Source: Botryllus schlosseri (Eukaryota). From it: 64,000 nucleotides of DNA. Position 1 is the stretch's first letter. The number at the start of each line of letters is the position of its first letter. The stretch covers positions 21,764,001 to 21,828,000 of the forward strand of contig CM119371.1 of assembly GCA_051294905.1 (NCBI GenBank), written 5' to 3'. Positions 15,138-56,235 of the stretch are shown here, piece by piece. Below the pieces are notes generated by a model that saw only the letters and a list, made by a program, of their open reading frames with translations, searched no databases and was not told where the DNA came from. The translations under genes and the position numbers were made by a program.

Positions 15138-15929
15138 CTTGTAAGAATACCCTATTTTAAAAGTATTTGTTCGTAAAACCACTGGCCCTGACGATAAAGC
15201 AATAAATTGGACATTGATGACCTTTTTTATATATTGATATTCAACGCCGCTAAAATATGGTGAAAGCTGGTATTTCGGGAGCCGAGTCGGGAATATGACC
15301 TTTTTTAGTCAACACAGCTCTATTGCTCAAAACATTTCCAAACCATTAGTTTTCTTTCCCGGTAAAAGAGCTTTCAGAATATTTGTAATGCCTTTTAAAG
15401 TTTGTTGATTAGTCAACGGGTATAAGTGGTACCATATGTCCCCTATTAGGAAATGTTTTCCTCTTTTTCTGAGAAATGTGAATGGTCCTCGGAAGATTCC
15501 CAAACTGTCTCTTTTTTCGTATTTCGCCATTGCTTATATTTTCCTCGAGACTTTTAGCCGAGGCGTTGTAGTTATTTTACAAACAAATTACTGTTGTCAT
15601 GAAAAATCCTAAATTTCTAGTTTAAAAATAGTTTCCCATCCGATTGCGCGACCAGTTGTAGCTTCTTGATTGATACTGTCAGCATTGTTCGGCGTTCTCT
15701 GTAACTACTTGGCCTGAATATATTTGTGGTAAAGACTTTTTGCAGAATTTTTGGTATAGCCGGTTATATTTTATGTTGTAAGCCGTAATTCTAATCATGT
15801 CTCTTGGCTACATCAAATTTGACACAATTTACATAGAAAGTGATAACAGTATCACTAGTCAACCGCTTTATTGTTTTGCAGGATTCCTCATACGTCTGAG
15901 ATTCGGGAAGCAGCTTCTTTACGACTAGA

Positions 15930-16802
15930 ATGTTATTGTCTATTCTATTTTGGCTAATTGATGTCGGCACTGATGTTTATGTGAACTTATTCTATTGGCG
16001 GAAACAGGACGACTTTCAAAGGGGGCCGCTACTGGCAATATTCGCTAACATCAGTTTATGCATCGGTGTAATAGTAACCTTAGTGACACTATACCTCATG
16101 ACAAAGGTCGATGACTCCAATGAAAAGAATAAGAAACTGACCACTGGAAGAAAGTATGAAATGTTTGTGGAATCACTTCCACAGTTATGCATAAGTCTCT
16201 TCGCCCTGTACGTGGGATTTGAAGGAAGACAACAAGGGGCTCTGTTCGTCTCAGCTGCCTTCTCGTTCGTTTCAGTGATTGCGGTTGTTCTAAGTCTTAA
16301 ATCTCCATTTGGAGAGAGATTTGAGCCGCACTCAAAAGTAGCAAAATTGCTAAAGATGCTTTGGATGACGTACGCATTAGCAGGACGAATAACTACATTA
16401 TTTTTCCTTGCGATACAGCCTGGACCTGATTTTATTTTGTTTTTCCTCGGTCGAATGATTCTTGGGGTGGTTGTACTAAATCGAGTTGGAGGATGCTGTA
16501 GTAATAGTGTAAAGATATGGAGACAACCCGGTATTGCTGTACTTTCCGTTTTCTTCTACGTGGAAGATAAAGACCTGAAACGTTCTGCACGATTTTTTGC
16601 TTATTATACGACAGAAAATGTGATTTTGGTGATATGTTCAACCTTTATTGGGCAGGAGGAACCCCAACTGATTTTTTTTGCCGTCACCATGACATTACAC
16701 ATATTCGCCACGCTTACATTCATTATATACTATGTGGTCGAGAAACCCCATCGTGTTATTGAGACTCAGAATGATGCTTATAACCTAGAAGATAGAACCT
16801 AG
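15930..16802 (+). CDS. XK-related (XKR scramblase family) multi-pass membrane protein, 290 aa, intronless CDS
   Basis: DVGTD in the first TM, EMFVESLPQL motif, conserved R (AGRI) and TENV motif, and many hydrophobic segments. Upstream in-frame stop; a plausible acceptor TTTTGCAG at 15881 suggests a 5' UTR intron. Confidence 0.85.
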   Translation: MLLSILFWLIDVGTDVYVNLFYWRKQDDFQRGPLLAIFANISLCIGVIVTLVTLYLMTKVDDSNEKNKKLTTGRKYEMFVESLPQLCISLFALYVGFEGRQQGALFVSAAFSFVSVIAVVLSLKSPFGERFEPHSKVAKLLKMLWMTYALAGRITTLFFLAIQPGPDFILFFLGRMILGVVVLNRVGGCCSNSVKIWRQPGIAVLSVFFYVEDKDLKRSARFFAYYTTENVILVICSTFIGQEEPQLIFFAVTMTLHIFATLTFIIYYVVEKPHRVIETQNDAYNLEDRT

Positions 16803-28600: not shown

Positions 28601-29720
28601 ATGATTCCTCTCACGCGATGCTGGATTGAGTATTAGGTTTTGAGTCGAGTCGGGTATTCGAGTGCAGCTCAGTATGTTGTGATAGGAACATGAATGGGGT
28701 GGTAAGTTTAATTTGTACCAAATAATATGCAAGTTCTACATCACGATAAATTAATTTCGCGTTTTGACCATGCACATTTTACCACACTTTACGACAAGGC
28801 TGTGGGGTTGATGACGATTTCTATGATATATCATTTCTAACTATCATCCGTAATTTGTGTTCCTTATTTCGTATATGCTATGACACTTGAGAAAATACCA
28901 TCGAAACTATTTTTAATATTAAGTTCTTATTGGAAAGGACCATATCATTTGAAAACTAGGATCAATCATCTCTCACTACTTGAATCAAATCATTCCAGTC
29001 AATACTCAATTCTGTCTCCTGTGTACTGGGATCATTATGCTCATCTCCAATCGTGAGACCTATTAATTTCATAAAACAAATGCCTCCTAATTTTTCATAA
29101 CATAAATACTCGATAGTTTGGAGCGTATATAGTATGCTGATAGATATAAATATATAGTTTATGTGTTCGCCATTACCTATTCCAATTTGTTCTGCAATGG
29201 AGTAATATCGTAACTATAGTTTGCTATGGGAAATATATGTGTGTGTGTGTTTGCGAATCGCATTTATAAGAATAATGCTGAAATAGGGGTATAGAACTAG
29301 GTACGACGCCCCCAAGACGTTAGGATATACTCCATATTATTATGGCGCAAAATACCATTGCGTTTCGGGGGCTGACAAAGGTCATGGTCAGATCTTAGAA
29401 AGTGACCGCACTCATGAAACTCAAGAAACTCCCATCTTGCTGAGCTTACATTGTTTTCCAATATTTGGATTTGCAAAAATGTGAATTAGTCTCGAATACA
29501 AATATTGAAACAGCAGCGATCTTGGAAATTTTCTGCAAGGATTCTGTGGCGAGAAATAGTCGGCATACCATTGCCCCCGAGTTATGTTCAAGTAGTATCG
29601 AAATTCAACATCTTGCGGAAACCTTGTTGATTGACTGTTCGTACAAGTCGTACAACAATATTGTGTTGTTTTGATTCGATGAATGTATCAATTAACTCAA
29701 TTCAACTGATCGATATATCG

Positions 29721-31258
29721 CAGTGGTTCTTAACCTTGCCACCAGCGCCCCCCAGGGGGCGCTGGTGAACTTGAAGGGGGGCGGAAACGCTCAGGGGGCG
29801 ATATGGGGGGCGCTGGGCTCAGGGGGGCGGTATGGGGGGCGCTGGAGAAAAATGGCTTCGCAGTAGATGATGTGGTGATAGGACATATCCTTAATGAGTA
29901 TTCAGAGCAAATTAACACCGAAAACGTCGTTACATATAGCCTTCAAAATACATATAGGTTTAATTGTCCATGAACGCCTAAATGACTGACACCGAATGTT
30001 CCTGTCTTGGCAATCAGAACCCCAGAAGACGAATTCCATCTGGCAGGTAAAAATTCTATGTCAGTAAGGAAATATCAATCTGAAATCGTTTGCGTCTTTT
30101 AGTTTAGTACGATTGGGCGACAGGTATATTCCTGTTGGACGATATCCCCGTTGAGCGATTCTATATTTTTTGATATTGCAGACAGGGGGTCATGAAATAA
30201 CATCTTGCAACGAAGTCATACCAACGGGTTCGCCCGCCCGAATATGTTTAATTATTAGTAACGGGCCCTACAGTTTCCAAAAAACCTCACAATGTTCGCT
30301 TTAAGTTTTGATGAGTCTGCGCACACTCAACAACTCACTGCGCTGACCCTTGGACAACAGTGCGTAACGACTAAAATAAGGTAATAACTCCGGATTTGTT
30401 GTGCGCAACGTAGATTTTCTGTGTGCAGAGACCGTGTCAGCACTGCGCGGGTGCGCAGCTTGGAGGGAACATTGCACCTCACTTAGCTCTACCGGTAAAT
30501 GTGTTTACGTGAGCAGAGAGAGGATTAAAATTGATCTCAATTTACATGCAATTCCCGATGATATTGACCAATTCAATCATTAATTAGTGAAATTTTTCGC
30601 ACTTCGCGCGAATAGGCGAGAATAGCTGGTTCAGTAAATGGACACGCAATGTAGATACCTAATAGGCTATCAGCAAATAGCGGACAGCCTAGTGGGGGTC
30701 TGGGAGTGAAGTCCCCCGGAAGTTTGGTTTCTCACCTAATGTGGGCCCAGGACCAACGTTTTTTGTTTGGGGGGGGGGGGGGCTGTTACGGCCCTGGTAA
30801 CGAATAATTGTACCTGCGGGCACGCCCGAATATGTTTAATTAATAATTACGTGCCCTGTATTTTCCTATACAACAGCTCACTCAGTGCTACTGGTAAATC
30901 TGATTACGTGGGCTGAGAGGATAAAAAGTTTATATAGCGACTTATATATGTAATTATCACCTATCCATTCATGCATTATGGAAAAGTTTGGTACTTAGGG
31001 CGACCAGGCCACACAAACATTGCTGACCATCAAATCACGATATGGGGTTCGTGGGGGCGAAGCCCTTAGAAGTTCGGTTTATCACGCTATGGGTGCGCAA
31101 GGCAATCGTTTTTAGGGGGGTTAACGAAGTGCTGTTACGGCCCTCCCTCTTACTCATTGTCTTTATTACATTCCTTAAAATATGAAGTTGGGGGGGGGCG
31201 CTGGAGCACGATAATTTTTGAAAGGGGGCGCTGGAAGAAAAAAGGTTAAGAACCACTG
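29721..31258 (+). mobile_element. Young hAT MITE, copy A (left inversion breakpoint)
   Basis: Perfect TIR CAGTGGTTCTTAACCTT...AAGGTTAAGAACCACTG. Appears identical to the reverse complement of 46480-48012 apart from a G14 vs G9 run. Flanks ATATATCG / ATATAAAC do not match each other. Confidence 0.95.
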
Positions 31259-31616
31259 ATATAAACAAATCCTCACATATCCACTGATGCACTCCTTGAC
31301 TCATGATATGACATACACACGATCTGTGCTTATGTACACATCTGCTTCTTGTTAGATTCAAAGACTAGTGGCAGACTCTTACTCTGTGAATGTGAAATCA
31401 AATACGTTGTTCGTGAGTAATATACTATGCGCAGGACAGTCGCCAAATTGTATTTTAGCTCGCTTATTTAGAAGCATAACGCAAGTAAAGGCTGCAATAT
31501 CAGTACACATTTCAGATGCCTTAGGCGTCTCGAATCCATTACAAATTGTAAACTAAACGTATATGCCTCATGGTTATTTTTTCAATTTTAGGATGCTGCT
31601 ATACAAAATGATATCC

Positions 31617-31864
31617 ATTCATATTGAAATGAACCCGAATATTTTCGGCTGACAATCGTCAGGGGTAATCGTCAGCAACTAGTAGCGAATTGGAAAGAAC
31701 ATTGTGTGATACGATTTTGTGATACGATTGTTGATATACAATGTTCTTTCCAATTCTCTACTAGTTGCTGACGATTACCCCTGACGAGTGTCAGCCGAAA
31801 ATATTCGGGTTCATTTCAATATGAATATACTATTCAATTGTATATTGAAGTTCTGTACCTCCAA
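31617..31864. repeat. Palindromic foldback element with ~90-bp near-perfect arms
   Basis: 31617-31706 is the reverse complement of 31738-31826 with few mismatches. Confidence 0.85.
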
Positions 31865-32108
31865 GAAATTCTTAAAATGCTATCAGGGAATTTCAACCAA
31901 GTCGACGTTGCATTGAACGGTAAAAGTGTATGCTGCGAAACAGTGGACGATCGTTATAAATCAGCTTATATTCCAGGGTAAACATTAGCATCCAGGTAAT
32001 TTGTTTATTTCGATGTATAAGACAAGTCAAGGTTTTCTAATCAAGACACACTCAGGCCTGTATCTATGGTCCCGTTGAATCCATTCTGAAAGTCAATATT
32101 GCCTAAAC

Positions 32109-32935
32109 CAGGGGTTGGCAAACTTTTGAGCTCGCGGGCCGCATTCAATATATGAATCCATTCGCGGGCCGCACCATATAAAATAGGGATTATAAACCAA
32201 AACGCAATATTGGTATTTGAATATATAGTGAGGACAAGGAGATATTATATATGCCTATTTAAAACAATCAAAACATTGCGTTGATGATATTGCACACGCG
32301 TCAGAAACAGTGGCGAGATTTCATAGGCTAGTCGACCTCGATGACCAATTTTTCAGAACTATAGAGATGAAAGTAGGTTGTCCCGATTCTTAGAACAGGA
32401 TTGAAATTTAAATCTGTGAGCAGCGTTCCGTTCATAGATTTGCTTATTCCACTTCTGGATCTGTTCCTGGACACACAATGCTGACAGCATCATAACCATG
32501 TTAGCTTCAAACACGCTTCTACTATGTGCAGATAAAATATAAATAATACCCTAAGTCTGCGCATACAGAGTAGAAATTTACCTAAGGCACGCCCGAATCG
32601 TTTTTTATAAGCACATCACTGAAATAAATAAAACTATAGTGGCAACCGAGGCGAGCAAACCTAACGGATAGCTACATGGCATGAAAGGTTACCACTGGGG
32701 ATGAGAGATTTTTAAATATGAAATTCAGCTTAAAAATACAGAGTAATAAGTATGAATGGGATGTAGATCACGTGAAGCGCGAATTATTTTTTTAGTTGAG
32801 CTCAGCTTCGCGCCCATCTTCAGATGCCCGTTTGGGGAGGGGGGGCTGCGCGCCCAGTTTGAGAACCACTGCCTTCGAATTATCCTGTTAGAATATACTA
32901 AGAAATCTTAAATCAAGGCCCAGCTTTAACCCCTG
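32109..32935 (+). mobile_element. hAT MITE
   Basis: CAGGGGTT...AACCCCTG termini; perfect TSD GCCTAAAC. Internal homology to ~23700-24200. Confidence 0.8.
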
Positions 32936-33077
32936 GCCTAAACACTAAACAGGAAGCGTTTCAAACGTGTTTTGAATCAATACCAAGTAGTTAAATTCAT
33001 ATAAAAATCCATGCATCTCTTCTCTGATTTTCTCTAGATTCTGGGATGCTGCTTTAAGACCGCATGCTGCAAGACCA

Positions 33078-33332
33078 GTGGTGTCAATTCTCGGTAATGT
33101 CCATTCTCTGTGGTGTCAATTCTCGGTAATGTCCATTCTCTGTGGTGTCAATTCTCGGTAATGTACATTCTCTGTGGTGTCAATTCTCGGTAATGTCCAT
33201 TCTCTGTGGTGTCAATTCTCGGTAATGTCCATTCTCGGTGGTGTCAATTCTCGGTAATGTCCGTTCTCGGTGGTGTCAATTCTCGGTAATGGCATTCTCG
33301 GTAATGGTTTTCTCGGTATTGTCCGGACACCG
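33078..33332. repeat. 32-bp minisatellite, ~7 copies, ending in a TIR-like TGTCCGGACACCG
   Basis: Unit GTGGTGTCAATTCTCGGTAATGTCCATTCTCT repeated head-to-tail without spacers. Confidence 0.9.
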
Positions 33333-33739
33333 GTCGAAGGTACCGGCGCTACTACTCAAGTCGATGTAGAAATATCGCCGTCAATTTATACCCGATCACA
33401 AGTAGATGCAACAGTTCCCAATACATGTCAAAGCTACGTCAAGTGGAAGTAGAATACGAAATGTCGGAAGAGTACTCAACTATGGTAAGCAGTTTTTCGT
33501 GGGTTTCCACATTCAAAATTGCGATATGTATATTCTGGACTAATGTAAAATTACTAATGGCATATGGCACTACTAAAAGGAAGACTCTTCAAAACTATAT
33601 TCAGTTATTCCTGATTCCGGCTCTGTTACAGTGGCGGCTCGTGACAATATCGGGTGGTGGGGCAAGGGCCGCAAGTGACTTGTTATCAATATGACGTCAC
33701 AGTAGCGTTTTTCAACGTTCATGATGGTCACATGAATTT

Positions 33740-34088
33740 CCCGTAAACAATGATTTTGGGATTTTTGGTGCGCTTTCACACGCTCTGACAAATGCTTCAG
33801 ATCGCGATAACCAATTTTGTTCCAACAAGAGCCACTGCTTCCGGTAACGGCACTGTCGAATAAAAGACAGTAAAAGCAAATCAAGGCGTTTTTATCCTCG
33901 CTATAATTAAGCCATTCATTTTTATCGAAATGCGCTGAAGAAAAGGCACGAGTGCGTTTTCCTCCGGCGTACGATTGGACCAATGGGCAATTTCTAGGCT
34001 GATACGGACCTAGTCGCTTTACCTCTAATTTTTGCTCTTAAGGCAGCTGGCTAAACGGCGTACGGAGCAAAGATTCAACACGATTCAT
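33740..34088 (-). pseudogene. N-terminal fragment of ZMYM1-like/TTF-zinc-finger hAT transposase
   Basis: MNRVESLLRTPFSQLP*EQKLEVKRLGPYQP...RAFSSAHFDKNEWLNYSEDKNALICFYCLLF...GYRDLKHLSERVKAHQKSQNH. One in-frame stop; catalytic region deleted. Confidence 0.85.
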
Positions 34089-34358
34089 GTCCGCACTTGA
34101 CCTGACTACTTATCTGCAGAAATGGAAATGACTATAAATCGAGAGATTGCGTATGCCTTCCTGGAAAGGTCAACGAGTTCGGACACATACGCAATTGTTA
34201 TCTCATAGATTGGACAAGGAAATGTCATATTGAATCCAAAACATCATTCTGAAGAACTACGGATAGCAGCCTCGGAAATTCGGTCCCGGTACAGCTTGGG
34301 AGATTTTGACCTTGAGGCTGGAGATTGTCACACGACACATACGGCTTACGGTCTATAG

Positions 34359-35923
34359 CAGAGGTCTCAAACACGCGGCCCGCGGGCCGCATGCGGCCCG
34401 CGAGACCATTTTGTGCGGCCCGCGACGGCATTTGGGATTTCGAAGTATTTCGACAATATTTTACTACCAATTTTTGAGAACTTAAAATTCGCTCTAAAAC
34501 TACTCCTGAAACTACTCAAACTTCACTAATACATCACTTTTAAAAGTTACCACTCGGTGGAATATCAACTATTAGGTGGCATTACTTGTTTAATTTTAGT
34601 GAAACATGACCCGTTGATGATTCGTGCCTGAAAATTGTGATTTGGACTTGAGGCGACCCTCTGTAGAATTACTCGTACTCGTCACGTCAAACGTTATAAT
34701 CAGAGAAGGACTTTTGAGATTCGGAATGCCGTGACTTGGTACAACCACGCACGCAACAAACCATGGTGTCATATATGGTGTGGACACAAGCAAATCTCTC
34801 GGCTCAGTGCAATCGGTGTACGTCACACTTTCCATTTGGTCGAAGGCAATTTGTCGGTAATTTTTGTACGGCTTATCCTGTATTAGCCTAGATTTTATAA
34901 AACGGGTATCAATTGAAAGCTACCGCAGCACTGGTTGTGAAAATATTAATTTGTTCTGTTCGTGGTCCTGAACTCCCCAAAATAAGCCTCGAATGTTGCA
35001 TTGCATGTGAGTTTGGTATTGTGATGCAGCAATGACGCCTGCCTGGGAGCAGGCGAGGAGCACCGCAAGCTGCAAGCGTATTGGCCATTGCTACGCAGGC
35101 GATTGAGCAGTGAGCACTCTCACTCTCGTGCGCATTTGCTCCTGAGGTGCTCAGACGTATCGTTGCGTCACAATACCAAACTCACTAACAATGCAACATT
35201 TGAGGCTAATTTTGGCGAGTTCCAGGGTCACGAACAGAATTAAATTAATATTTTCGTAATCAGTACCGTGATAGCTTTCCATTGATCATAAATTACCGTC
35301 AAATTGCCTTTGACCAAATGGAAAGTGTTACAAAGACCAATTTCACTGAGTCGTGAGATTTGCTTGTGTACACACCATATAGGACACTATGAACAAACTA
35401 TCAAACTAGTAGGAGAAATAGTATAATATCAAAAGATCGTAGCTTGCGTTGCGTAGCTTATTTAGATATCAAAGCATGTAGGTATGGCAACCGACATTGG
35501 CATTATGTCGCCCCTTTGATGTATAGTTAGTTACATCCCGTGTCATCTTGGGTATCTTTATATATGTTATTGTCGCCAATTTAATGTGGCGAGTATTAAC
35601 TAGTCGTAGCCTACGCTTCACAGCTGTAGCGAACGGATTCTTCGGCGATTGCACATTTCTATTGTTATTGCACAGATCCATTATGTTCAAAGTTGTTATT
35701 GATCTGTTCCAACATTCGAAGGTAAAATCAAACTCTGATTCTATTTGACTTCCGTGATTACATGTCAATATAGCCTAGTTATCAGGAGTAGACCTATGCT
35801 CGAAACCCGGAAATAAGGCCTACTTTGAAATACATTGAATACCCCTATTATTGGTGGTGCGGCCCGCGACGCCATCAAAAATAGGAAATTGGCCCGCGAG
35901 CACATTTGAGTTTGAGACCTCTG
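34359..35923 (+). mobile_element. hAT MITE (CAGAGGTCTCAAAC family) nested in the Tip100-like element
   Basis: Perfect TIR CAGAGGTCTCAAAC...GTTTGAGACCTCTG; perfect TSD GTCTATAG. Confidence 0.9.
34762..35391. mobile_element. Foldback MITE with ~260-bp imperfect TIRs and 7-bp TSD (Galileo/P-superfamily-like)
   Basis: Termini CATGGTGTCATATATGGTGT...ACACCATATAGGACACTATG; TSD AACAAAC on both sides. Second copy at 53957-54514. Confidence 0.8.
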
Positions 35924-37689
35924 GTCTATAGTGTCTACTGTATATATGTCTGCTGCAAAATCGCCTTCAGAAAATATATTACCGAATAAATACGTGGATC
36001 AAAGCCGAAAACTTGGTACACTGTTACATGAAATCATCGAAAAGTAGCCTCATGACCGTTTTCGGTATGGTACACTGTCAAAATTAATACGAATTGATCA
36101 ACGCCGAATTTTGCGTAAAATTTACTGAGGAATAGGCTGATCAAGCGATAAGCTGTTAGCCGCCATCGAAAACGAAACAGCTATCGCGCTTGACAGGGGT
36201 TGTAATTGTGAGCAAATGGCCCGAAGGCCACCATTCCACGGTGAAATTGACATTGGAGAATATAAAATAAAACTAAATATTTGAATGCAAACCGAGGATG
36301 TTAGTAAACTGTTTCATGATATCATCATCTTATCACCTGTCTCAGTATGGAACACAGATACACCGGCTTTTGCGTGAAATCCGCAATGCGTTAGGTAGGC
36401 TAAGTGTCAGATCAGCGCACATCTCTACCATACTCGAACTTGATAACGAAATTGCTGCCCTAATCATTGAGTGCCAACCTTGAGACTTGGCACGGCGTTC
36501 GATACTAAAATCAAGACATACCATGTAAAAGCTCATGAGGGATCTAGCTAAGGAGCATCGTTAAAATTAATGGAGACCAATACCGGCTTTGCGTGAAATA
36601 TGTTTGCGATACATGACGGATCAGCACACACTCGACTTTGGAAACGGAATTACTACCCTAAACTTTGAGTAGAAACCCTGAAACTTAGGACAGTGTTAAA
36701 TACCACCATCACGACATGACATACCAAGTTTCAAGAATTATCATGGTGTTAAACACCATCAAAATCGACCTATACCAGCAAAGGTCGACTCAACGCATAT
36801 CACGGTATCCGAGTTCAGATATAGATACGATTGTTACATCACACCTTAGGGGCGACAGGCATATATGCCCCGGTTGCTCGGCCATTTTACGAATAGGAGA
36901 GAGTATATCACCGTTTCTTAATTGTGCGCGGCTTTGAGAGAATAGATAGTGAAAGCTTGTTATGAGCGCTACCGGGGCATGCCCCGGCTAGGCATTCACA
37001 AAGCGAAAACACAGAAGAGAATTCGATTTTCGCAGAGACTTCTCTATGTATGGGCATTTGCAAGCGAAAGCACAAGAAGAACGCGGGTTTCGCTGTGATC
37101 TCGGTATATATTGAGCGCTGTACGTCTATAAATGGTTAAACTGTTATTGAACAGAATTTTAGGTGGGGCAATGCCCCAGTTGCCCTATAGGACGAGCCGC
37201 CACTGCTCTGTTACCAGACTTGGAAAACTAGATATTCCAGATGTCTAATTATAATATTTGAAACGAAATACCGGTAATTCAATACTAATTTGTGAAATCT
37301 TTCTATGCTCTAATTCTAATTCAAATCGAATTTGAGAAATCTTTCTATGGTAAAATTTTAATTCTAATCTTATGTATGGTTTTCGGGAAATGCTACAGGA
37401 AAACTGGATCGTGCGAAACGAGCCAAGCTTTCTGTACAATAGGGTTGTTAAAAAAAAAACGTTTTTTCCAAATCTCACTCGCTTGGTGACTAAATCGTCA
37501 GGCTGTCTAAGAAAATGATGCACACCAAATTTTACTCAATTCCAACCAGTAAAGGCCGTGCAATCTTGAATCGAAATTTTTAATTTATCGGGATCAATTA
37601 TAGAAAAAAAATTCAAATTTTTCTGTCAACCCCATGAAATTGTTGAGCTGTCTTCAAAGGCGATACAAAACAAATTTGAGTCAATTCCA

Positions 37690-38491
37690 ACTATAGAAGC
37701 GAAGCTATTCGATTTTTTCGTTGATAATCCCATGATCAATGATCATGCCAATGTCAGTATCACGGCAATACACAAGGCTACCGGAAGTAGCCCTACGATG
37801 AAAACGCCGTCTCTCATGATCGCAAGTGATATATCCTCTCTCTCCCTTGCCAAGTAATATTTTCTCAATTCGCAAGGATGCTAAAAGTTCCGAACTTTTA
37901 TTATCCAAGTCCCAAAGCCCTACTGAGATCATTTGACTTGTCTTCATGGACTACACTACGTTCTGAATCACCTTCGATTTCGAAATCTTCATTATTAGGC
38001 CTGTTATCCCTGCGATCTTCATCTTCCACCAAATTATCGAGCGTAAAAGAGTTTCAAGTTTCAATGGATAAGCTAAACGGGGCATTGTACCAATAGTTGA
38101 GGGTAAATGTAATGTTTATTTTACTTGCCATATCCATCAGTTTGCATCAAATATATGTCTGACATCTCCTCGGATGATTGCATCCTCTAACCAAAAATGG
38201 GCGAAGCCATCGGTCTTCTAAATCGATACCAGTACATCTGTTCCTAATAATTCATATCACCCCCTAGCTATATAACTCATTATATGATTGAAGTTTTGAT
38301 TTATATATGGTATGGAAAAGTAATATGGCTAAATTCGTGAAAATTCACATATTTTGGGCACATGTTGTAGGTAGAGCAATAACTCGATGTGATAGAAGAA
38401 AACCAATGGAATGTTTGGAACCAGCACGCCAAAATTAGTCTAAATCAAGTACAGATTACTGTCAACAAATGTTCAAAATTGTTGCCCAGTG
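37690..38491 (-). mobile_element. Chapaev3-like element, 5' fragment
   Basis: Inverted homologue of 39285-40030; CACTGGGCAAC terminus next to TTA; decayed SELLASLRIEKILL...LVYC. Confidence 0.7.
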
Positions 38492-39284
38492 TTAATAATG
38501 TTGCTATGCGACGAGGATTGCGTTACCATGGCAAGACCTGTTTGATTTCCGTAAATCATTGCTATGCTAATCGCCCCGTAAACATTTCGAATTGTCCTAT
38601 TTCAATTGGCTTCCGTCGACTGTAGTGTTAGGAGTTAGGCAACATTGCTAAACGACCGGACTTCCATTTTGTTAAATTACTCCATATCTTCGAACAGTTA
38701 CTGATAGCACTTGAATACCAAGACAGAAGTTATGTCCTGGCCTAGATTAAGCGCCGCGCTACAACGTCGTTAAACGAAAGAATACGTTGCGGCCCCTCAA
38801 TAAAGGAGAATTTCTCGAGAGGTTGCCTGAAGAGTGCGGTTGGGCCGATTCCACTATCTTATCAGTAGCGAAAACCTTTGCCGGAGTTCACGAAACAGCG
38901 ACATGCTTCAACATATAGTTATCAACCGAGATCCTCATCAATAGATGAATAGTATTTATCGTGTGGTATGAACATGGTTAATTAAGATGAGATATTATAT
39001 TACATGCTCTAAATTTAAGAATATACCGCTTCCATGAGCTCTACTGGTAAATCTGATCACATAACCTATCTGTAATATGTGCAACTACCAATAATTCTGA
39101 CTAAATACCTTTCACATATTATAATTATATATTCATGTATTTCATCATATTATGTTCATTCATTAATTTGCGACCTCCGCACGAGTAGAAAATAATGCGG
39201 GTCATTCATGAGTCGCGTATAGCCGGACATATTTTGCAACGGAAGAGGTATGTGATTGCGTGAGGTTGAGCAATGTGCATATTA

Positions 39285-40854
39285 CACTGGGCAACGATTT
39301 TGAACGAAAAATTTGTTGACTTTGCTTTTGCATATGATTTAGGCTAATTTAGGCGTGCTGATTACAAAAATGTCACTGGTTTTGTTCTATCACGTCCAGT
39401 TTTTGCTCTACAACATATGACCTAAACATCCCAATTTTACGAATTTAGCTATGTTTATTTTCTATACCATACAGAAATCCATACTTTTATCATATGATAA
39501 ATTATAAAGCCAATAGTCAATTGAATTAAATGAAAGATGGTACCGGTATCGATTTAAGCCGATGCTTCCGCCTATTTATGGTTTGCGGATACAATCATCC
39601 GAAGGATATTTCGGACACTTTTTTGATGCATACTGCAGGATATGACAAGAAAAATAAACATTTCATTTACTGTCAGCTATATGACCAATGCCAAATCCAG
39701 CTGTAATTACAAACTCCTCTACGCTGGGTAATTTGGATCAGGCTGAGGATCCTAGAGATAGCAGGCCTAATGATGAAGATTTTGAAATCGAAGACGATTC
39801 AGAATGTAGGATAGTCCATCGACACAAGTTAAATGATCTGACGTAGCCTTTGGGACATGGAATAGAATTATTCGGAATTTTTAACATCCTTACGAATTGA
39901 TAAAAAATTACTTGGCGAGATACAAAGATATCTCGCTTTCGATCACGAGAAACGGCGTTTTCATCGTAGGGCTACTTACGATAGCTTTGCTTATTGTCGT
40001 GATACTGGCCCTGGCATGATACTGTTACCATGGGTTGCAAGGGAAGTTATGAATCCCAATTTACAACTCAAGTGAATGACAAATGTCTACTGGTAGCTCA
40101 AAAAGGTACCTAAAATGTGCGATCTCCAACATGGCAACGTATTAGCTTCAGTAACAATTGCACACTCAATTAATCTGCGTGAATAACACAAAAACATTGA
40201 ATTGTTGCAATATCACAAGCACGATTGGCACGTAGCCTATGTGTCAGCTTTGAAATATTGTGTTTTCTTAGTGGTTAGACAATAAGGATGCACGTGTAAC
40301 CCTGATAGCCACTGTCATATATGAATGTCGAACAGCATACACTCAAAAAAGCTAAAATATCTAAATGATTTCCCGAGAAACCTTGGCATAGTCAGCGATG
40401 GTCAAGGAGAGAAGGTCCCGCAATATCTGAAGATTATGGGGGGAGGGGGGAAGATACCACAATAGATTGGAGCTTACATGTGTTAGCTGACTGTTGCTCG
40501 AGTATCAATCGAGACAGCCTGTAGAACTATGAGTGTTTAACGTGAATTTGAACCCGGAAACTCGCATTTGATTTGTCCTGAACAAGCATAATCTGTTCAA
40601 ATCAACCAAATAAAGCATGGAAAATGTCGATCGAAGTCGATCGATTTACTTTCGACTGCTTGTGCTTCTTGAAACATTTCAACTCAAAATAATAAAAGTA
40701 GTACATTTTTGTGGATTATGAGACAATGAGGTGGGTGCCTAACCCAAAAACGTGACGTGATAGAGAATAACGGAAGTGATTTATGAATTCGTCGCCTAGA
40801 AGTTAGTCATAACCATTTGTCTGATAATGGTCAACAAAATTGTGTTGACCAGTA
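39285..40854 (+). mobile_element. Chapaev3-like (CMC) DNA transposon relic with decayed transposase
   Basis: TTA|CACTGGGCAAC...GTTGACCAGT termini. Broken reading includes NDL, SSKRYLKC..HGNVLASVTIAHS and DFPRNLGIVSDGQGEK..LKIM..RY..LADCC, matching the FPENLGAVSDEQGERFHQD / MADYCW motifs. Confidence 0.75.
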
Positions 40855-41338
40855 TTGCTGTATAAAAGGATTGAATTACGGACAGGGAAACGTCCAGATG
40901 CTGTGTTTATACTCTAATGGGGGCTCAAGACTGCGTTTTTGCGAGAAGAAAATGACAATGTGCTCTTATCTCTTAAGGTCCTACTTAATATGCACCCTTG
41001 GTACCTCTTTTGAATATAAACGTGGAACGCACCACATGCGCTATACCACTGTCGTACCATGCAAGTCATTGGTGGAAGAGGTCCATAAAAGTATCATCGC
41101 ACGTATAGGCCATATGACGGGCTATGTGAAGTGAAAAATTGCGAAATGACACCAAAGCTACGTTTGTACTGCGATAAAGTAGTCCATATACATAACAGGT
41201 ATCAGTAATATTACTTCACAGACCGCGTCAAATTATTACAAAGGGATCATATTGACCACTGTCCTCGTACTGCAGTGGCTCTCAACCGCCAGTCCGTGAC
41301 AAGTTTCCTAACGGCCCGCCTGATATATTAGAATAGTA

Positions 41339-42608
41339 CAGGGGTTCTCAACCTGGGGGGCGCGCCCCCCTTGGGGGGCGCGGGAGGCTCTCAGGGGGGG
41401 CGCGAGAAATTGACGAAGTCAGTATAGGGGGGGCGCGAGAAATTGACAAAGTCAGTATAAATTGTACGTGTCTGAACATGTGTGTTCACATCCATTGTGA
41501 GAAGACGATTAATGAAGATGAAATTTATTCCATATTCAAGAAAGCTTGCAAAATACAAACTCTAGCAACAGCGCTCAACTGAGTATAGTCTGATTTCAAC
41601 TTATTCTGAGCAAATTTTTGAAATTCTTTGGAGATATAGAGAGCAATTCCCACTTGTAAGTCATTCATTGCTTCATAGCTTTGACAGTAGCCTAAAGCTT
41701 GTCGCGCTGGGCAGCTCTTGTTAGTAGCTTGCGAACTGCACTGCCTAAGACAGACTTAGATGCAACATAGGTTGGCCGGTTTCGCCCCCAATTAGGCTAT
41801 AAATCAACACAATTAATTTATTTCGAAAACTGATCAAATTTAGCCTGGCAGGACAGAACGACGCCTTGCTCTCGGTACTCACTACCAGCATCAGGATTAG
41901 TCTCAGGGTGACCTACATTGAAATTAATTAATGGATGTCTTGTTCCATGTTTTTTTGTTATTTTCAAACAAGTTTGAAGAAATTTGTCAGCAATATAAAA
42001 GACTCAACAACTGGAATGCAGATTCAAAATTGACGTAACATCTACCTTATGTATACTATTAGATCAGGGGTGGGCAGCCTGCAGCCGTAGAAGGGAATTT
42101 GAGCGGCCGTCGACGCCTAATTCAATTAGTATGTGTTGGCGGCCGTAGACATGCAAATTGCAATTACGAATTCACTCCCACATTTTCGAGAGATTTTAAT
42201 TAATCTTGAAATTTTCTTCGCCCTCCGCGCAATTCAACAAGACTTCATTTTTCAATTTTAATGCAGTAGCGCCCTTCTTAATCTGAGCCGGAATGGGAAG
42301 TGGCAAGAAATAGCAATTCGTTCGCGGCCCTGAAAAATGTTCGCGCTCCGCGCGACAATATGCTCCTCCCGGCAGCTATTCATAACATTGCCACTCAAGA
42401 TTTCGGTGCGTACAATAGGCCATTGTGAAAAGTAGAATAGTCCGGAGTTCACCGGGAATGGATATGGACAGTTTACCGTAGGAATTTTGCGTCCAGATCG
42501 TTCATTGCGGCGATTATCATGACGATAAATGCAAGGGGGGTGAGGGGGGCGCGAGTTTTTTGACCATCTCCAAGGGGGGCGCGTGTCAAAAAAGGTTGAG
42601 AACCACTG
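41339..42608 (+). mobile_element. hAT MITE; uninterrupted paralogue of the element hosting the P insertion
   Basis: TIR CAGGGGTTCTCAACC...GGTTGAGAACCACTG; perfect TSD GAATAGTA. ~41733-42608 aligns by eye with ~1171-1586 plus 5645-6207. Confidence 0.9.
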
Positions 42609-42725
42609 GAATAGTATATCTCAATTCCCAAATACAAGAAGTTGATCCCGTGTCCGTCCATAATAGAAATAGGACATCTAATTTTGATTTAGAATTTAAT
42701 GACGTATTTATCTGCGTGGTATGAC

Positions 42726-44169
42726 CAGGGCCGTAACTGCCGCACCCCAAACCCCCCAATTAGGGGGGGGGGGAGCTCGAAGGGGGCCCCGAATTCTTTC
42801 GTGAATTAGCATAAATTATATTGTATTTTTTTTGAAACTTTATGTAACCTTTTTCAAAAAATTTTCGCCCTGCGCACGATTTCAACTTACCAGATGTTAC
42901 GATTATTGGGTAGGCTAGTCTTTCCCCAAGGAAAAATAGGCAAGATTTATAGAAATGGGCATATCGGCGGTGGCCATTACCGCTCCACGACGCACCAAGA
43001 AATATAAAGTTTTAGGCCATGTAACACGCGACTCCAAGAAGTGTGCCAGAACGATCGGCAGCGAGAAACCTTGGCCGAAAGGGATCGCCTTTATGGTGAC
43101 CGAAAACATCGTTATATATACGAAATAATAGGTTTATTTGTCCATAGGCGCCTAACTGACTGACGCCGAATGTTCCTGTCTTGGTAATCTGAACATCACA
43201 AGACAAATACCATCCGCCAGGGAAAATTAGATGCCAGTGAAGAAATACCAATTTAAAATCGCGTGACCTTTTAGTTTAGTATTCTATATTTTTCGACATA
43301 GCAGACAGGAGGTCACGAAATAACATCATGTAACGAAGTTATACCAACGAGTCCGCTCGTCAGAAGATGTTCAATTATTATTTGCGGGTTCTACAGTTTC
43401 TGAGACACCTCACTCATCTCTGCCGGTAAATCCGATTACGTGAGTAGAGAGGATAAGAAATTGATAGCAATATATATGCAATTCCCGATCTTATTGGCCG
43501 ATTTTATTATGAATTATCAAAAATTGTCGCGCTTATCGCTGGCTAACTAAACAATACAACTGTAATTTCGTGGCAAAAGCGCACAACGTGACTGGGGGGT
43601 CGGGGGTCGGGTCTGTTTATCACCCTATGGGAGTCCAAGACTCAAGTTTTATTGGGGGGCCTGGCGAAGTGCTGTTTCGTTCCTGCCAACGTGTATACAC
43701 CCGGATATGTTCAATTCTTATTGAGGGGTCATACCATTTCAAGCACACTATACTCAGCTCTACCGGTAAAACAAATTGCGGGACCATAAAGAGGATAAAA
43801 ATTGTTAGCAATATATAAGCAATAATGATCATATTGACCGCTTCAGTCATGAATTATAGAAAATTCCCGCGCTTCGCCCGATTAAGCAAGCAAAGCTGAC
43901 TCCCTAAACGGACACCCATTGTATCAACAGCGTCATATTGACCGATTCAGTCATGAATTATACAAATTTCTCGCGCATGGCGCGATTAGACAAGCAAGGT
44001 AGATTCACTAAACGGTCACTCAACGAAGAAACAAGTTATAGGCAATGTAAACACATAAACAGCGTAAAGTCGGAGGGGTTCTTCCCCAGAAGTTCGGTTT
44101 ACAACCATATGGGCGGCCCAAGACCAACATTTTTTTGCGGGAGGCTGAAAAAGTGCTGTTACGGCCCTG
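42726..44169 (+). mobile_element. hAT MITE (CAGGGCCGTAAC family)
   Basis: TIR CAGGGCCGTAAC...GTTACGGCCCTG; TSD GGTATGAC/GGTATGAA; internal tandemly repeated module. Confidence 0.8.
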
Positions 44170-45114
44170 GGTATGAAATCGAGGGTTTATTGTCTATTTC
44201 GGGCGAACGTCTCAATGGTGCAAGTGCTAAAAGAGATTGTTTAAAAGTAACCTTCAACTCATATCAGAGCAGTTATATGCGAACGCTTCGAAAACTATTA
44301 AACAAACTTCGTTAAACTCCCACAGTAAAATTAAGTGTCACTTGACAGTATAATGAAGGCTCTAGTAACTCGCTAACTCGCATTTTTCCAAATATGCCGA
44401 ACAATCACAATCTGGTTAGTGGTCTTTATCAGGACTTCGCGAACTTCTACTTGCAGAAACTTCAATTGGGACACATTTCGATGTATAGTATCAAAAAGAC
44501 ACATAGTTCATTTATGTTGCATGAATTTGTCGTCATTAAAATGAGATTGAATTTTTGTTTTTGAAAGTTGTTGAGGTCGAAAAAGGTTAAGTACCACTGC
44601 TATATTCACAGCAGTCACAGCTTATTCTATAATCCTACTTCGAATTAAGTACTAAGCCACCTAGCACAAACTATCCTCTATATATATTGCTACAAGTGAA
44701 CCGCCACTGAAACACCATCTTTGAAGCAAAAATTCCGATGAATACAAAAATTTTCACGTGGAAAACGGTGGCAAATTGTTAATATGGCTGCATAACATGC
44801 ATATGATAATTCAGCCGTCTCATATGGACCAACCAAATGACCCGTACTGTCATCAATATGTTTGCGGATAAAGAAGTGACGATGTGACCTTAGGAAAGGT
44901 AAACTAGCTAAGACACATTTATTCAACTCGAGTCATCGAGTGATATGCTTTATTGTTTGATATCAAATATGTACAGAACGTGATATCATTACTAAGTATC
45001 TATTTCCACCGCTGGTCCAAACTTCACCACTGTCTAATTCTGAAACACCGTATGTAGAATTGATATTATTAGGTAGAGATAGAACTTGCTGTTTCAATTA
45101 AATAACATTACAGC

Positions 45115-46397
45115 CAGGGCTTTGGAGCCGGAGCCGGAGCCCGGAGCCGGAGCCCCAGAGCCGTGCATTTTCACCGGAGCTGGAGCCGGAGCCGGAGCTG
45201 GAGCCGGAGCCGGAGCTCTACATAAAATTCAGCCGGAGCCGGAGCCGGAGCTAGAGCCCGTTATTTGAGGAGTAGCTCCGGCTCCGACCTATTTCATAAG
45301 ATGCTATTATATATGCAACGATCACATCTGCTGATTTGTCATTATTGAACAGCAGGCCTGAATTTTAATGCTGAGCAAAGCAATGGCATAAGAGTAAACT
45401 GCGTTCTAGTGCAACTTTGATGTTGTCGACAATTGACAAGTATTAATTATGACGTCACATGGCGGCACCTATATGTCTTCGTTGCTACATCGGATGTTAC
45501 TGACGGCTGACAGACTCTAGATTACCATAGATAATTAACCTATGGGTAGATTAGTAATCTATATAGACCAGGAATGGCCAACCTTTTCGGCGAGTGCGCG
45601 GTCCACTAGCCGCGCCAAGCGGGTAAAATTTTCAAAGTTTATGAATAAACTAGGTCATAATATTATTACTTGAGTATTTCGGGTCTATTGTATACCGCCC
45701 GCTAGGCTCCGCTAGGCTCAGTTTGCAAGGACGCGGCTTTTCGACGTCTGGCCACATCGATATCGAAGGTCTCCGATAATATGCGACAATCATTTTGTGC
45801 TTACATTTCACCGTCGACGATCTTTATGCGAGCGCAAACGCGAAAAGACTCTCCCGTAATTGAGAATACAGTTAAACTCAATCGGGTAAATTAGGCGTTT
45901 TTTCATTTTCAGTAGGGGGCAGGCTACCAAGCAAGAAATCGTGTGACAATGAAACACGCGAAGCGTGGAGAAAAATCACGCTACTATTTTAGTTTATTGT
46001 AATGTACGACGATTTACTGAAAATGTGACTGCACCCTGGATCTGCCAATGCGTCGGAACTGATATCTTAGTCATCAACATCACAAGTGTCGCAGCCAGAA
46101 TTGTAATTTTTGGTTGGCATTGCAAGTTCACAATCCGATCAATTCATTTTCGATAACACAATAGGAAATTACCTCGCAGGCCACGCAAAACCCTCTCCCG
46201 GGCCACATTGGCTCGCGGAATGGCCACCCCTGATATATACAGACCCATTCGATAATTTCAGAGCCGGAGCCGGAGCTGGAGCCGGAGCAGTGGTAATAAT
46301 GCGGCTCCGGAGCCGGAGCCGGAGCTAGTGTATGATAGAAGAAAGCTCCGGAGCCGGAGCTGGAGCAGTTTAACTTTACGGCTGCTCCAAAGCCCTG
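45115..46397 (+). mobile_element. GGAGCC-array hAT MITE, second copy
   Basis: Same TIRs as 6957-10128; TSD ATTACAGC/ATTTCAGC; lacks the 7337-9197 insertion. Confidence 0.9.
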
Positions 46398-46479
46398 ATT
46401 TCAGCGAGCATGTGGATGTTGAGCCAATTGTACCAGTAGCTATGGTTTGTACAGCGGCAGTGGTAATGAATCGATATAT

Positions 46480-48012
46480 CAGTGGTTCTTAACCTTTTTT
46501 CTTCCAGCGCCCCCTTTCAAAAATTATCGTGCTCCAGCGCCCCCCCCCAACTTCATATTTTAAGGAATGTAATAAAGACAATGAGTAAGAGGGAGGGCCG
46601 TAACAGCACTTCGTTAACCCCCCTAAAAACGATTGCCTTGCGCACCCATAGCGTGATAAACCGAACTTCTAAGGGCTTCGCCCCCACGAACCCCATATCG
46701 TGATTTGATGGTCAGCAATGTTTGTGTGGCCTGGTCGCCCTAAGTACCAAACTTTTCCATAATGCATGAATGGATAGGTGATAATTACATATATAAGTCG
46801 CTATATAAACTTTTTATCCTCTCAGCCCACGTAATCAGATTTACCAGTAGCACTGAGTGAGCTGTTGTATAGGAAAATACAGGGCACGTAATTATTAATT
46901 AAACATATTCGGGCGTGCCCGCAGGTACAATTATTCGTTACCAGGGCCGTAACAGCCCCCCCCCAAACAAAAAACGTTGGTCCTGGGCCCACATTAGGTG
47001 AGAAACCAAACTTCCGGGGGACTTCACTCCCAGACCCCCACTAGGCTGTCCGCTATTTGCTGATAGCCTATTAGGTATCTACATTGCGTGTCCATTTACT
47101 GAACCAGCTATTCTCGCCTATTCGCGCGAAGTGCGAAAAATTTCACTAATTAATGATTGAATTGGTCAATATCATCGGGAATTGCATGTAAATTGAGATC
47201 AATTTTAATCCTCTCTCTGCTCACGTAAACACATTTACCGGTAGAGCTAAGTGAGGTGCAATGTTCCCTCCAAGCTGCGCACCCGCGCAGTGCTGACACG
47301 GTCTCTGCACACAGAAAATCTACGTTGCGCACAACAAATCCGGAGTTATTACCTTATTTTAGTCGTTACGCACTGTTGTCCAAGGGTCAGCGCAGTGAGT
47401 TGTTGAGTGTGCGCAGACTCATCAAAACTTAAAGCGAACATTGTGAGGTTTTTTGGAAACTGTAGGGCCCGTTACTAATAATTAAACATATTCGGGCGGG
47501 CGAACCCGTTGGTATGACTTCGTTGCAAGATGTTATTTCATGACCCCCTGTCTGCAATATCAAAAAATATAGAATCGCTCAACGGGGATATCGTCCAACA
47601 GGAATATACCTGTCGCCCAATCGTACTAAACTAAAAGACGCAAACGATTTCAGATTGATATTTCCTTACTGACATAGAATTTTTACCTGCCAGATGGAAT
47701 TCGTCTTCTGGGGTTCTGATTGCCAAGACAGGAACATTCGGTGTCAGTCATTTAGGCGTTCATGGACAATTAAACCTATATGTATTTTGAAGGCTATATG
47801 TAACGACGTTTTCGGTGTTAATTTGCTCTGAATACTCATTAAGGATATGTCCTATCACCACATCATCTACTGCGAAGCCATTTTTCTCCAGCGCCCCCCA
47901 TACCGCCCCCCTGAGCCCAGCGCCCCCCATATCGCCCCCTGAGCGTTTCCGCCCCCCTTCAAGTTCACCAGCGCCCCCTGGGGGGCGCTGGTGGCAAGGT
48001 TAAGAACCACTG
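46480..48012 (-). mobile_element. Young hAT MITE, copy B (right inversion breakpoint)
   Basis: Reverse complement of 29721-31258, giving identical ORF translations in the track. Flanks CGATATAT / GTTTATAT. Confidence 0.95.
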
Positions 48013-48703
48013 GTTTATATCGATCAAAAGGACAGTCTGGTAAACTTTGGCAAGGCTATGTTTCCCTCTCCAAATTGGTAAAACATTGAAGACCAAGCTA
48101 ATCCGTGCACTGTTACACACCGAGTTGACCGTAGTAGTGTGCGTTGCTACGCAGTAGATGTAAATTTCTACTCGATGACAAGTATATAGAAGTCGCAATG
48201 TCAAATCTATGCCAAAACTGCTTCAAATAAAAATTAACATATGAATGGAACTCAGAGAAGTAGCTTAAAAAGAAGTAGTCTGGTTGATGGGTCACGTGCT
48301 TACTCTTAGCAGAAAATCTGAGGGGGCCACTTCAAAATATGCTCAATAAAGCAAGCCTGTTCCTAGTCAAGTCTGTCGTATTCATAGCATAGGACTAGAG
48401 CAATCTCATATTTTAACCTGTGTTATAATATCAATAAGATTTACTGGCACCAATTTATGGGAATCGACAGCTTTCATCAAATGTCCATTGCTCACCTCAG
48501 ATATCTTTGCTCCAACCCTTTGCCACCAATTTTGTCCAAGAATTGCTTGCTTGTTTGTATGTTACACTTGTTTTCTCATGAGGAGAAATCGATAATTGCA
48601 TTCTTCAGGAGCCGCAAGATTTGTGATATTAGGCCAAGTCTGAAGTAGAATAGAGAATATGTTTACCCGCCTAACATTACATATAATAACAGGGTGATAG
48701 GCC

Positions 48704-54514: not shown

Positions 54515-55257
54515 CTTTGACCAATGAAATAAATGGAAATATCGAAATGACTATATCGTCAGTGATCGCACATGAATATATTCGGAACATGTGTTTCGGA
54601 CAAGCTATTGTTAACTCAATCCTACAAATATGCCATCGATGTTCGAAAGGTGGAATGTAAATCCCTACGACATCTACCACCTACTCAACAGCTTGTTTGC
54701 AATGTCAGCGCAATATTATAAAGACTACAATATAGGGTTACGATACGTTATCTTTTGGGAGGATTTGCCTTCTTTCTTGGCTTATTTGAAAGTGTCCTCG
54801 GGGGACGCCTAAATGTCTGTTTTCTTGAAAATGTGTCCTCTTCTTTGAGAATTGCGGTTGAAAGTAGGCCTACGTGGAAATTGGACTGATATATAGTAAA
54901 CAGAGGGAATGTAACGGACTGACGGGTACCTTTTTTTAAGTCATTCTCGAATTCGGGTAAAATTTACCATTATCAGGATTTCACTCCAGTACTGTAAGTT
55001 GTAGGCCTAAATCTGAAAATTTTGATAAATTATCCTCTTTTCAGAATTCCAAAATATGATAACCCTATTATAATAGGTATTCCTTTCCCACAATAGGCTA
55101 CATGTTATGGGAGAAGCCTTGTGTCTGGATTAAAGATTTTAATTAGGAATCAGTCAACCTCCTTAAATCTACTACAATCCAGTACTAACAAAGAACTTCT
55201 CCAAGCTTCTCATAGACACCAACCGTGCCAGACTCGAGAAAAGTCTGATCATTCAAT

Positions 55258-56235
55258 ATGCCTGCAAATATTGGGAACATTTTTTCATCTGAAAAATGGA
55301 AGAAAATACGGTTTTGCGGAAGTATTGCAATATTGATACTCGATTTCGTCTCGGATCTAAATGCGAACATCATCTATTGGAGGAACAAAGACGAATCACC
55401 TACGGGCCTCGGAATCGCAATATTTGCGACAATAAGCTTGGTTCTAGGATTCCTCATATTGTCGATCACAGTATTCGAAACATATATCGAAGATGCAGAA
55501 TACGAAAATGAAAATCGTCGGTCAACTCGATTCATAGAAGCGATTGTGGAATCGATTCCACAGTTATGGATTAGTCTTTACGTTCTGTCTGTGAGCGATG
55601 ATCAGGAGCTTCGAGAGAGAATATATTTATACGCGTCGGCCGCCATATCGTTTTTAACAGTTGTTTCAATATTATTCGAAATTGATAAGGTCATGAAAGG
55701 AGAGAACATTGTCCCAAAGCCGTTTGCACTGAAAGCGCTTCAATTCACATGGGAGTCGACTTCATTTTTCGTAAGAATGACTGCATTAGTCTATATATCT
55801 GTTGAACTTGATTGGTGGACAGCGTTGTTTATTGGATTCCATTTAATATGTTTCGTGGTATTCGACTATATTACGAATGTATTTGGCGACCATGAAATCG
55901 AATTGTCCCTACCAAGGCGAATTTTGGCGGCTGGGGTTTTCGTCTTTTTCGTAATTGACTTTAATGCTACACCGAATCAAATCGCTGCGTTATTCATATT
56001 GCACACCACGCAAAATGTGTTTGCGATATTATTGACAATTTTACTTTGGGCCGATAAACCCTTCTACTTGTTTTCGAATTTCCTCGTTTTAAACATGTCA
56101 GTCCACATAATCTCTCTGGTTTCATCAGCAATTTACTATGTCATCATGGAACGCAATCCTGATTATTCGCGTAGCCAGGATAAAAATTCGGGTGGCGGAG
56201 TTGGAATGTCATTAATCGCTGCCACTGATATATGA
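55258..56235 (+). CDS. XK-related membrane protein, 325 aa, intronless CDS
   Basis: DFVSD, YWRNKD, EAIVESIPQL, FVRM and TQNV motifs are collinear with the 15930 ORF. In-frame stop upstream of the ATG; AATAAA at ~56361. Confidence 0.85.
   Translation: MPANIGNIFSSEKWKKIRFCGSIAILILDFVSDLNANIIYWRNKDESPTGLGIAIFATISLVLGFLILSITVFETYIEDAEYENENRRSTRFIEAIVESIPQLWISLYVLSVSDDQELRERIYLYASAAISFLTVVSILFEIDKVMKGENIVPKPFALKALQFTWESTSFFVRMTALVYISVELDWWTALFIGFHLICFVVFDYITNVFGDHEIELSLPRRILAAGVFVFFVIDFNATPNQIAALFILHTTQNVFAILLTILLWADKPFYLFSNFLVLNMSVHIISLVSSAIYYVIMERNPDYSRSQDKNSGGGVGMSLIAATDI

Follow-up and report, generated by a model that had tools for sequence, protein, structure and literature searches.

A probable, recent 15.2-kb inversion recorded by the exchanged target site duplications of two near-identical, inverted hAT copies

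The window, that is the whole 64-kb stretch of DNA analysed, contains two XK-related genes lying on the same strand, a single-frame one at 15900..16802 (+; PF09815, E 1.4e-13) and a second one at 55249..56235 (+; PF09815, E 3.2e-18). The two are 28.5% identical, and a homolog search with the XK protein returned one match, at 34%. Both genes are located outside a segment of 15,221 bp (31259..46479) which, as argued below, would have been inverted. About half of this segment is made up of repeats that occur elsewhere in the window, and intact hAT-like elements, each with its own target site duplication (TSD), lie inside it at 33629-37205, 34359-35923, 41339-42608, 42726-44169, 45115-46397 and 45569-46232. 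No gene was found within the segment by tblastn, Pfam and Rfam, searches which short exons could escape; likewise, neither a third XK gene nor any other exon was found there by a gene-order test or by tblastn, the latter returning the two known XK genes only. Among the 147 frames of at least 55 aa scanned against Pfam (all 108 in 26000-46479 and 39 of the 87 to the right of the segment's right-hand border element), none matched at the curated cut-off, and two gave weak matches below it (E 0.047 and 0.013); left of 26000, 2 of 141 frames were scanned. Rfam gave 0 matches over 26000-52000.

The segment is bordered by two copies of one element, namely copy A (29721..31258, + strand, 1538 bp) and its inverted twin, copy B (46480..48012, - strand, 1533 bp), arranged in such a way that the right ends of both point inward. 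In a global alignment, A and the reverse complement of B differ by 0 substitutions and by a single 5-base gap, which falls in a run of 14 G in A (about 30760..30773, + strand, positions taken from the alignment) that counts 9 in B (about 46965-46973). The identity extends to the final base at both ends, and the substitution divergence between the twins is below 0.2%. The coordinates and flanks of both copies, as given in the initial annotation, were all reproduced, and its remark that the G-run is the only difference between them is borne out by this alignment.

Copy A has perfect terminal inverted repeats (TIRs) of 17 bp and GC-rich GGGGGCG subterminal repeats at both ends; its longest stop-free frame measures 79 codons, and its frames of at least 55 aa have no match in Pfam. 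Non-autonomous hAT elements are recognised by an 8-bp TSD, TIRs of 5-27 bp and a length below 4 kb, and the Buster family of hAT by the target consensus nnnTAnnn (PMC3517528). Copies A and B have 8-bp TSDs (once the swap described below is undone), short TIRs, a length under 4 kb and no transposase coding capacity; a central TA is present in both of their targets (n=2 sites for this element), as it is in 10 of 12 other elements examined. On the sequence of its ends and targets, the element is thus classed as a non-autonomous Buster-type hAT. In this it resembles the Mar MITE of Drosophila willistoni, which has an 8-bp nnnTAnnn TSD and short TIRs starting with CAG and is non-coding; Mar was classified by a relic transposase (PMC3517528), whereas the present element is likened to it by TSD, TIR and coding features. 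Neither an autonomous partner nor a transposase of the element was found within the 64-kb window, and its left end had 0 matches in metagenome contigs. Judging from contig depth, the family is very abundant.

The window harbours 15 other complete hAT-like elements flanked by direct 8-bp TSDs that have at most one mismatch, 13 of them from a CAG...CTG scan and 2 from other scans, in keeping with the earlier statement that nearly all other intact MITEs here have matching flanks; 8 of the 15 TSDs are exact and 7 contain a mismatch. The same CAG...CTG scan yielded 17 TIR-like pairs without a TSD, A and B among them, and the remaining 15 were judged by eye to lie inside long inverted arms, to be cross-pairings of different elements or to belong to the P-like element at 1646-5580. 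Orphan element ends are present in the window as well.

The flanks of A and B are exchanged. The left flank of A (29713..29720, +) is the outer half of the target 1 duplication, ATATATCG, with a central TA, and its displaced half, the reverse complement CGATATAT, is the left flank of B (46472..46479, -). The right flank of A (31259..31266, +) is the displaced half of the target 2 duplication, ATATAAAC, also with a central TA, and its outer half, the reverse complement GTTTATAT, is the right flank of B (48013..48020, -). The reciprocal exchange of 8-bp flanks that had been noticed at this locus is therefore exact at both ends, and undoing it gives two exact 8-bp duplications. The joint chance of both exact swaps is 4.9e-7 when the null consists of the window 8-mers of type nnnTAnnn, and 1.8e-6 under a more generous null. 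When flanks are compared as reverse complements (at most 1 mismatch), the only matching left-left pair out of 171 is A/B itself, and the matching right-right pairs (3/210) are A/B and two unrelated pairs; A/B alone match reciprocally at both ends, and lone matches of this kind are attributable to target preference.

That such lone matches arise by chance, and that the left and right flanks of copy A are alike at 5/8 letters, might suggest that no inversion took place at all, the TSDs having simply decayed or the inner 8-mers alone having been exchanged by conversion. This explanation would nonetheless require six reciprocal changes beside elements with zero substitutions, and 13 identical letters in a repeat contig (see below) indicate that the 8-mer at 31259 forms one stretch with the adjoining inner flank; this explanation is extremely improbable and close to refuted. 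Both target sites share 11 contiguous letters (29707..29717, +, that is 6 upstream letters and the first 5 of the TSD; partner at 48016..48026, -, on the target 2 side). A segmental duplication including the flanks was rejected, for the similarity ends 11 letters into the outer flanks and omits the 3 letters adjoining the element. Template switching at the 11-letter match as the origin of B was rejected too, because A's TSD would have been copied, whereas B has its own. A likeness of this kind to the flank of the donor could aid target choice.

Information on the junctions comes from four runs containing the region, all of them contig sets and all from one sample; runs X5-X7 contain next to none of the region's words. 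Contig comparison places target 2 in an older multi-copy repeat (31259..31440, +), to which belongs a contig of 151 letters whose depth (930 in X3, 725 in X4) far exceeds the value of about 4-12 seen in single-copy pieces. All 13 letters of 31259-31271 recur in this contig, and the 10 letters preceding them there resemble, by eye, the outer flank of B at 8/10, the left flank of A at 5/10 and the element end at 2/10, a comparison that draws on a single contig from a single sample, for which 30 of the 105 loose letters were listed, and in which about 3 letters tell B from A. The likeness to the outer flank of B has a binomial p of 5.6e-4, and the best match in the window is at 48013-48030. The 13 letters and the 8/10 match imply that target 2 was once a single site, at which the right flank of A was joined to that of B; at target 2, and there only, the un-flipped join is weakly supported by a paralogous, multi-copy repeat contig. 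Extra matches with 3 mismatches at 39936 and 57557 were discarded, being part of another repeat and giving no alignment across the junction.

No paralog in the window and no split element across the reconstructed junction was detected by BLAST, an end-pairing scan, pairwise alignment or nhmmer. The 15 contig joints listed, of 2313 in 27000-46479, include none at a breakpoint and are dominated by repeats; within 31231-31540, no contig of any of the four runs extends over 31275-31285, a gap which proves nothing, and the contigs listed there do not include the assembled junction. Those listed for the two intervals comprise no empty-site allele, and neither copy A nor copy B is spanned by a read or a contig.

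Exactly the same sequence, the repeat-contig evidence included, would be expected if two inverted insertions of the ordinary sort, both with a TSD of their own, had been mis-joined during assembly, the 1.5-kb repeat being crossed wrongly at both copies, and the region is represented by contig sets only (4 runs, no library on record). Yet the G-runs of 14 and 9 letters have been kept apart, and hence the twins were not collapsed into one consensus; furthermore, the window has no N and sits on an assembled piece of more than 30 Mb, and a length of 1.5 kb would usually be crossed by long reads. A mis-join is accordingly regarded as unlikely.

The arrangement is thus likely to be a real, recent inversion of 15.2 kb, recorded by the swapped TSDs of near-identical inverted hAT copies, and the flip would reside in the chromosome rather than in the assembly alone. 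The initial annotation had proposed a recent inversion due to ectopic recombination or alternative transposition, with the possibility of recurrent flipping. Of these, a recent inversion with hAT twins at its borders stands as the best reading, the two mechanisms being indistinguishable with identical copies; recurrent flipping finds no support, as nothing shows both orientations.

As to the mechanism, a two-step origin, by a local hop and subsequent ectopic recombination, is given an even chance. In the first step, a copy would have hopped locally with copy gain, by means of a transposase supplied from elsewhere, and landed inverted about 15 kb off, in a second nnnTAnnn site. In the second, a crossover between the identical 1.5-kb copies, possibly initiated by a transposase break, would have flipped the intervening DNA and moved half of each TSD to the opposite breakpoint; slippage of the G-run in one copy would have come last. 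Both steps have precedents in rice, where 2 of 270 regenerants had gained an additional linked copy from a single Ds, and where inversions by homologous recombination made up 11% of the rearrangements obtained from an identical inverted Ds pair (PMC3239180). Against the two-step route it may be said that, with a divergence under 0.2%, both events would have to have taken place before the first substitution arose.

The other route to be weighed is hybrid element insertion, in which a left and a right end from sister chromatids are inserted together 15 kb away, so that a single event inverts the DNA in between, exchanges the TSDs and leaves two identical copies in opposite orientation (a geometry derived within this analysis). 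Ectopic recombination predicts chimeric copies and hybrid element insertion identical ones (PMC2775673); the identity of A and B bar the length of a homopolymer is what that paper expects of the latter, a necessary rather than a sufficient feature, and one event replaces two. The twins also carry a C at 30731, where A accounts for more than 99.7% of the contig depth of the family in all four runs (40 of 736 rows listed), a weak signal, given that contigs drop rare variants; the shared minority allele suggests a parent-daughter link between A and B, in favour of the two-step route, and fits, weakly, a one-step origin as well. On the other hand, the identity is not diagnostic, since a fresh local hop likewise yields identical copies, and the inward right ends fit either route. 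By analogy with Ac/Ds, the best-studied hAT, whose standard elements have their competent 5' and 3' ends on a single chromatid (PMC3239180), the one-step route would be disfavoured. No natural animal inversion attributed to hybrid element insertion was found in the mostly freely accessible parts of the literature. Since A and B differ by no substitution, nothing in them could reveal a crossover or speak against one, and with identical copies the two routes are inseparable here. Hybrid element insertion is considered possible but doubtful, and somewhat more doubtful still is the wider proposition that it took place here and that one-step inversions of 10-15 kb recur across this hAT-rich genome.

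Close inverted repeats are able to convert one another, and in so abundant a family A and B might be older, independent insertions which recombined and were later homogenised by gene conversion, with possibly repeated flipping. Yet the identity of the copies includes their outermost bases on either side, their two TSD pairs are perfect as opposed to the mismatches seen in 7/15 of the other elements, and nothing is left that would mark two parental copies; a history of this kind seems very unlikely.

Exchanged TSDs at a transposon-bounded inversion are an already published signature, known from Galileo and BuT5. The Galileo inversions of Drosophila buzzatii, e.g. 2z3, likewise have opposite copies at their breakpoints and exchanged TSDs; however, Galileo, with its long TIRs and TSDs of 7 bp, is a member of the P superfamily, its copies are chimeric, which is proof of ectopic recombination, and the empty sites were sequenced (PMC2775673), whereas the present copies are hAT elements with 8-bp TSDs, identical to each other and enclosing 15 kb. 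The MITE BuT5, found at both breakpoints of inversions 2s (D. mojavensis) and 2x3 (D. uniseta), is closer in being non-autonomous, non-coding and about 1 kb long, with exchanged 8- or 9-bp TSDs; it relies on a P-element transposase and its inversions are fixed (PMC3698922), in contrast to the Buster-type ends and targets and the apparently very young event described here. The rice OsRLG5-161 Ds pair shares with A/B the hAT superfamily, an inverted local extra copy and 8-bp TSDs, and shows inversion by homologous recombination, but it is a transgenic Ac-family pair from tissue culture, spaced by 1.1 kb (PMC3239180), as compared with 15.2 kb in a natural animal genome. In the accessible parts of the literature, no locus of this type was found reported beyond the Galileo, BuT5 and rice Ds cases.

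A lone case has little weight, the signature being known and no gene having been found within the segment; its value is that it looks very young, is resolved to the base and comes from an animal genome in which hAT elements are active. Moreover, only where identical twins have exchanged their TSDs does sequence fail to separate the two routes. Should swapped twins be common in this genome, a genome-wide census could test which route makes small natural inversions; should the one-step reading be true, the genome would offer a natural setting for telling the two routes apart, by counts of swapped and unswapped twins according to age.

The inversion is probably neutral and possibly heterozygous. 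Contigs of a single sample show other alleles nearby and, along with the low divergence of the twins, make it plausible that the inversion is polymorphic.

Copies A (29721-31258, + strand) and B (46480-48012, - strand), the near-identical inverted elements that enclose a 15,221-bp segment (31259..46479), differ in a global alignment by one 5-base gap inside a G-run and by no substitution. The left flanks of A and B are reverse complements of each other, and so are the right flanks; the joint probability of both exact matches is 5e-7 to 2e-6 under nulls allowing for a hAT target preference. Chance matches at a single end do exist (2 unrelated right-end pairs of 210 are reverse-complement with at most one mismatch), and a match of this kind at both ends is found in the A/B pair only. 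The initial annotation had reported the coordinates, strands and flanks of the two copies exactly, and its reciprocal TSD swap and its reading of the G-run as the only difference are both confirmed. Its remark that nearly all other intact elements have matching flanks also holds, as 15 further complete CAG...CTG elements carry direct 8-bp TSDs (8 exact, 7 with one mismatch). Decay of the TSDs as the origin of the swap fits these flanks poorly and is scarcely credible; conversion of old copies, as the origin of the likeness of the twins, is likewise a poor fit and very improbable.

The twin element has perfect 17-bp TIRs, GC-rich subterminal repeats and a longest stop-free frame of 79 codons, and both of its targets have a central TA. 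These features agree with the criteria for hAT elements and with the target consensus of the Buster family in PMC3517528, the Buster assignment being based on two target sites and not on a transposase. A piece of ~190 bp within A and B (30290-30475) also stands alone at 14944-15138, with short inverted ends and 84% alike, which would make the twin element itself composite. Contigs of the one sample covering the region contain the family in very high abundance; in-window relatives are partial only (68-84% alike, in pieces of at least 45 bases). At position 30731 both twins have C, and among the matches listed A occupies more than 99.7% of the aligned contig depth in all four runs, contigs being prone to drop rare variants; the shared C gives a hint of a parent-daughter relation between A and B, as opposed to two draws from a uniform burst.

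The structure is the already known exchanged-TSD inversion signature, described in Drosophila for Galileo (PMC2775673) and for BuT5 (PMC3698922); unlike those cases, it involves a putative Buster-type hAT and a 15-kb segment. According to PMC2775673, such inversions can arise by ectopic recombination between two inverted copies, which leaves them chimeric, and also by hybrid element insertion starting from one site, which leaves them identical. Since A and B are identical, a crossover can be neither demonstrated nor excluded. The favoured route, held with roughly even confidence, is one in which the element would hop locally, giving a linked second copy, and recombination between the two copies would then invert the DNA between them. 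Each of the two steps has a precedent in rice for a hAT element: in PMC3239180, 2 of 270 plants had gained a linked second copy from a single Ds, and inversions by homologous recombination made up 11% of later rearrangements. The same paper locates the competent ends of standard Ac/Ds on one chromatid. Hybrid element insertion would make the inversion and the twins in a single event and predicts identical copies; it is a tentative second choice. A census of twins across the Botryllus schlosseri genome could tell the two routes apart.

Target 2 (31259-31266 and 48013-48020, - strand) sits within an older multi-copy repeat. A high-depth 151-letter contig (runs X3 and X4) aligns to 31287-31329, and the loose end preceding the aligned part contains the 13 letters of 31259-31271. 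By eye, the 10 letters before these agree with the outer flank of B at 8 positions (p ~6e-4), with the left flank of A at 5 and with the element end at 2, in one contig of one sample where the two candidate flanks can be told apart by about three letters. An 18-letter contig motif has its best match in the window at 48013-48030. The DNA right of A and that right of B were thus probably once a single site. The contig informs the ancestral join and not the chromosomal reality of the flip, because an assembly mis-join would produce the same sequence, the join seen in the repeat contig included; such a mis-join is unlikely, and the differing G-run lengths of A and B speak mildly against it.

Divergence between the twins is at most 0.2% (95% upper bound; 0 substitutions over ~1520 positions). 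In X1, X3 and X4, one contig has eight variant letters nearby (28473-28517), and a 292-letter contig of X2 starting at 31300 has two. If these contigs represent the second haplotype, the twins would postdate the separation of the haplotypes and the inversion would probably be present in heterozygous state, the sample being possibly the window's own source and hence not independent support.

Both target sites share 11 contiguous letters (29707-29717, 48016-48026), six of them outside the TSD; among pairs of sites drawn at random from the window and similar in their core, 0.03% have a shared run of this kind, in a post hoc test whose null is inflated by repeats. The run may come from a target preference that reaches beyond the TSD, from chance, or from local insertion being guided by resemblance to the donor flank. 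Target 1 (29713-29720 and 46472-46479, - strand), as reconstructed, forms a palindrome of 14 bp whose midpoint lies one base away from that of the TSD, and it resembles a hairpin-repair footprint. The terminal hexamer of the element recurs inside the segment at 31281-31286 (22 bases from the inner end) and ~46458-46463 (~16 bases), each time oriented like the adjacent element end.

The window is animal DNA dense in non-autonomous transposons. Outside the segment lie two single-frame genes of the XK-related (scramblase) family in tandem orientation (15900-16802 and 55249-56235, both + strand); they are divergent (28.5% identical), and the second has one database homolog only (34%). A C-terminal cystinosin exon (62095-62331, - strand; E 1e-12 to solved cystinosin chains) is also outside. 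Within the segment, no further XK copy and no Rfam match was found, and no frame of at least 55 aa reached the Pfam cut-off, which short exons could escape. A 154-aa frame at 33576-34037, without a Pfam match, resembles by eye an N-terminal zinc-finger piece of a hAT transposase. A P-superfamily-like element (1646-5580; ~215-bp TIRs, 98% complementary) carries a 317-aa transposase fragment (3252-4205, - strand; PF21787, PF12017) and lacks an 8-bp TSD at those ends that were checked. Elements of hAT-like type are nested three deep, each with its TSD (8365-9055 in 7337-9197 in 6957-10128), and further nests occur at 34359-35923 within 33629-37205 and at 45569-46232 within 45115-46397. The segment also contains a tandem array of seven 32-bp units (33078-33299) and an older inverted pair (37742-38497 and 39280-40020, 76% alike), more copies of which lie at 57522-57969 and 59492-59775.
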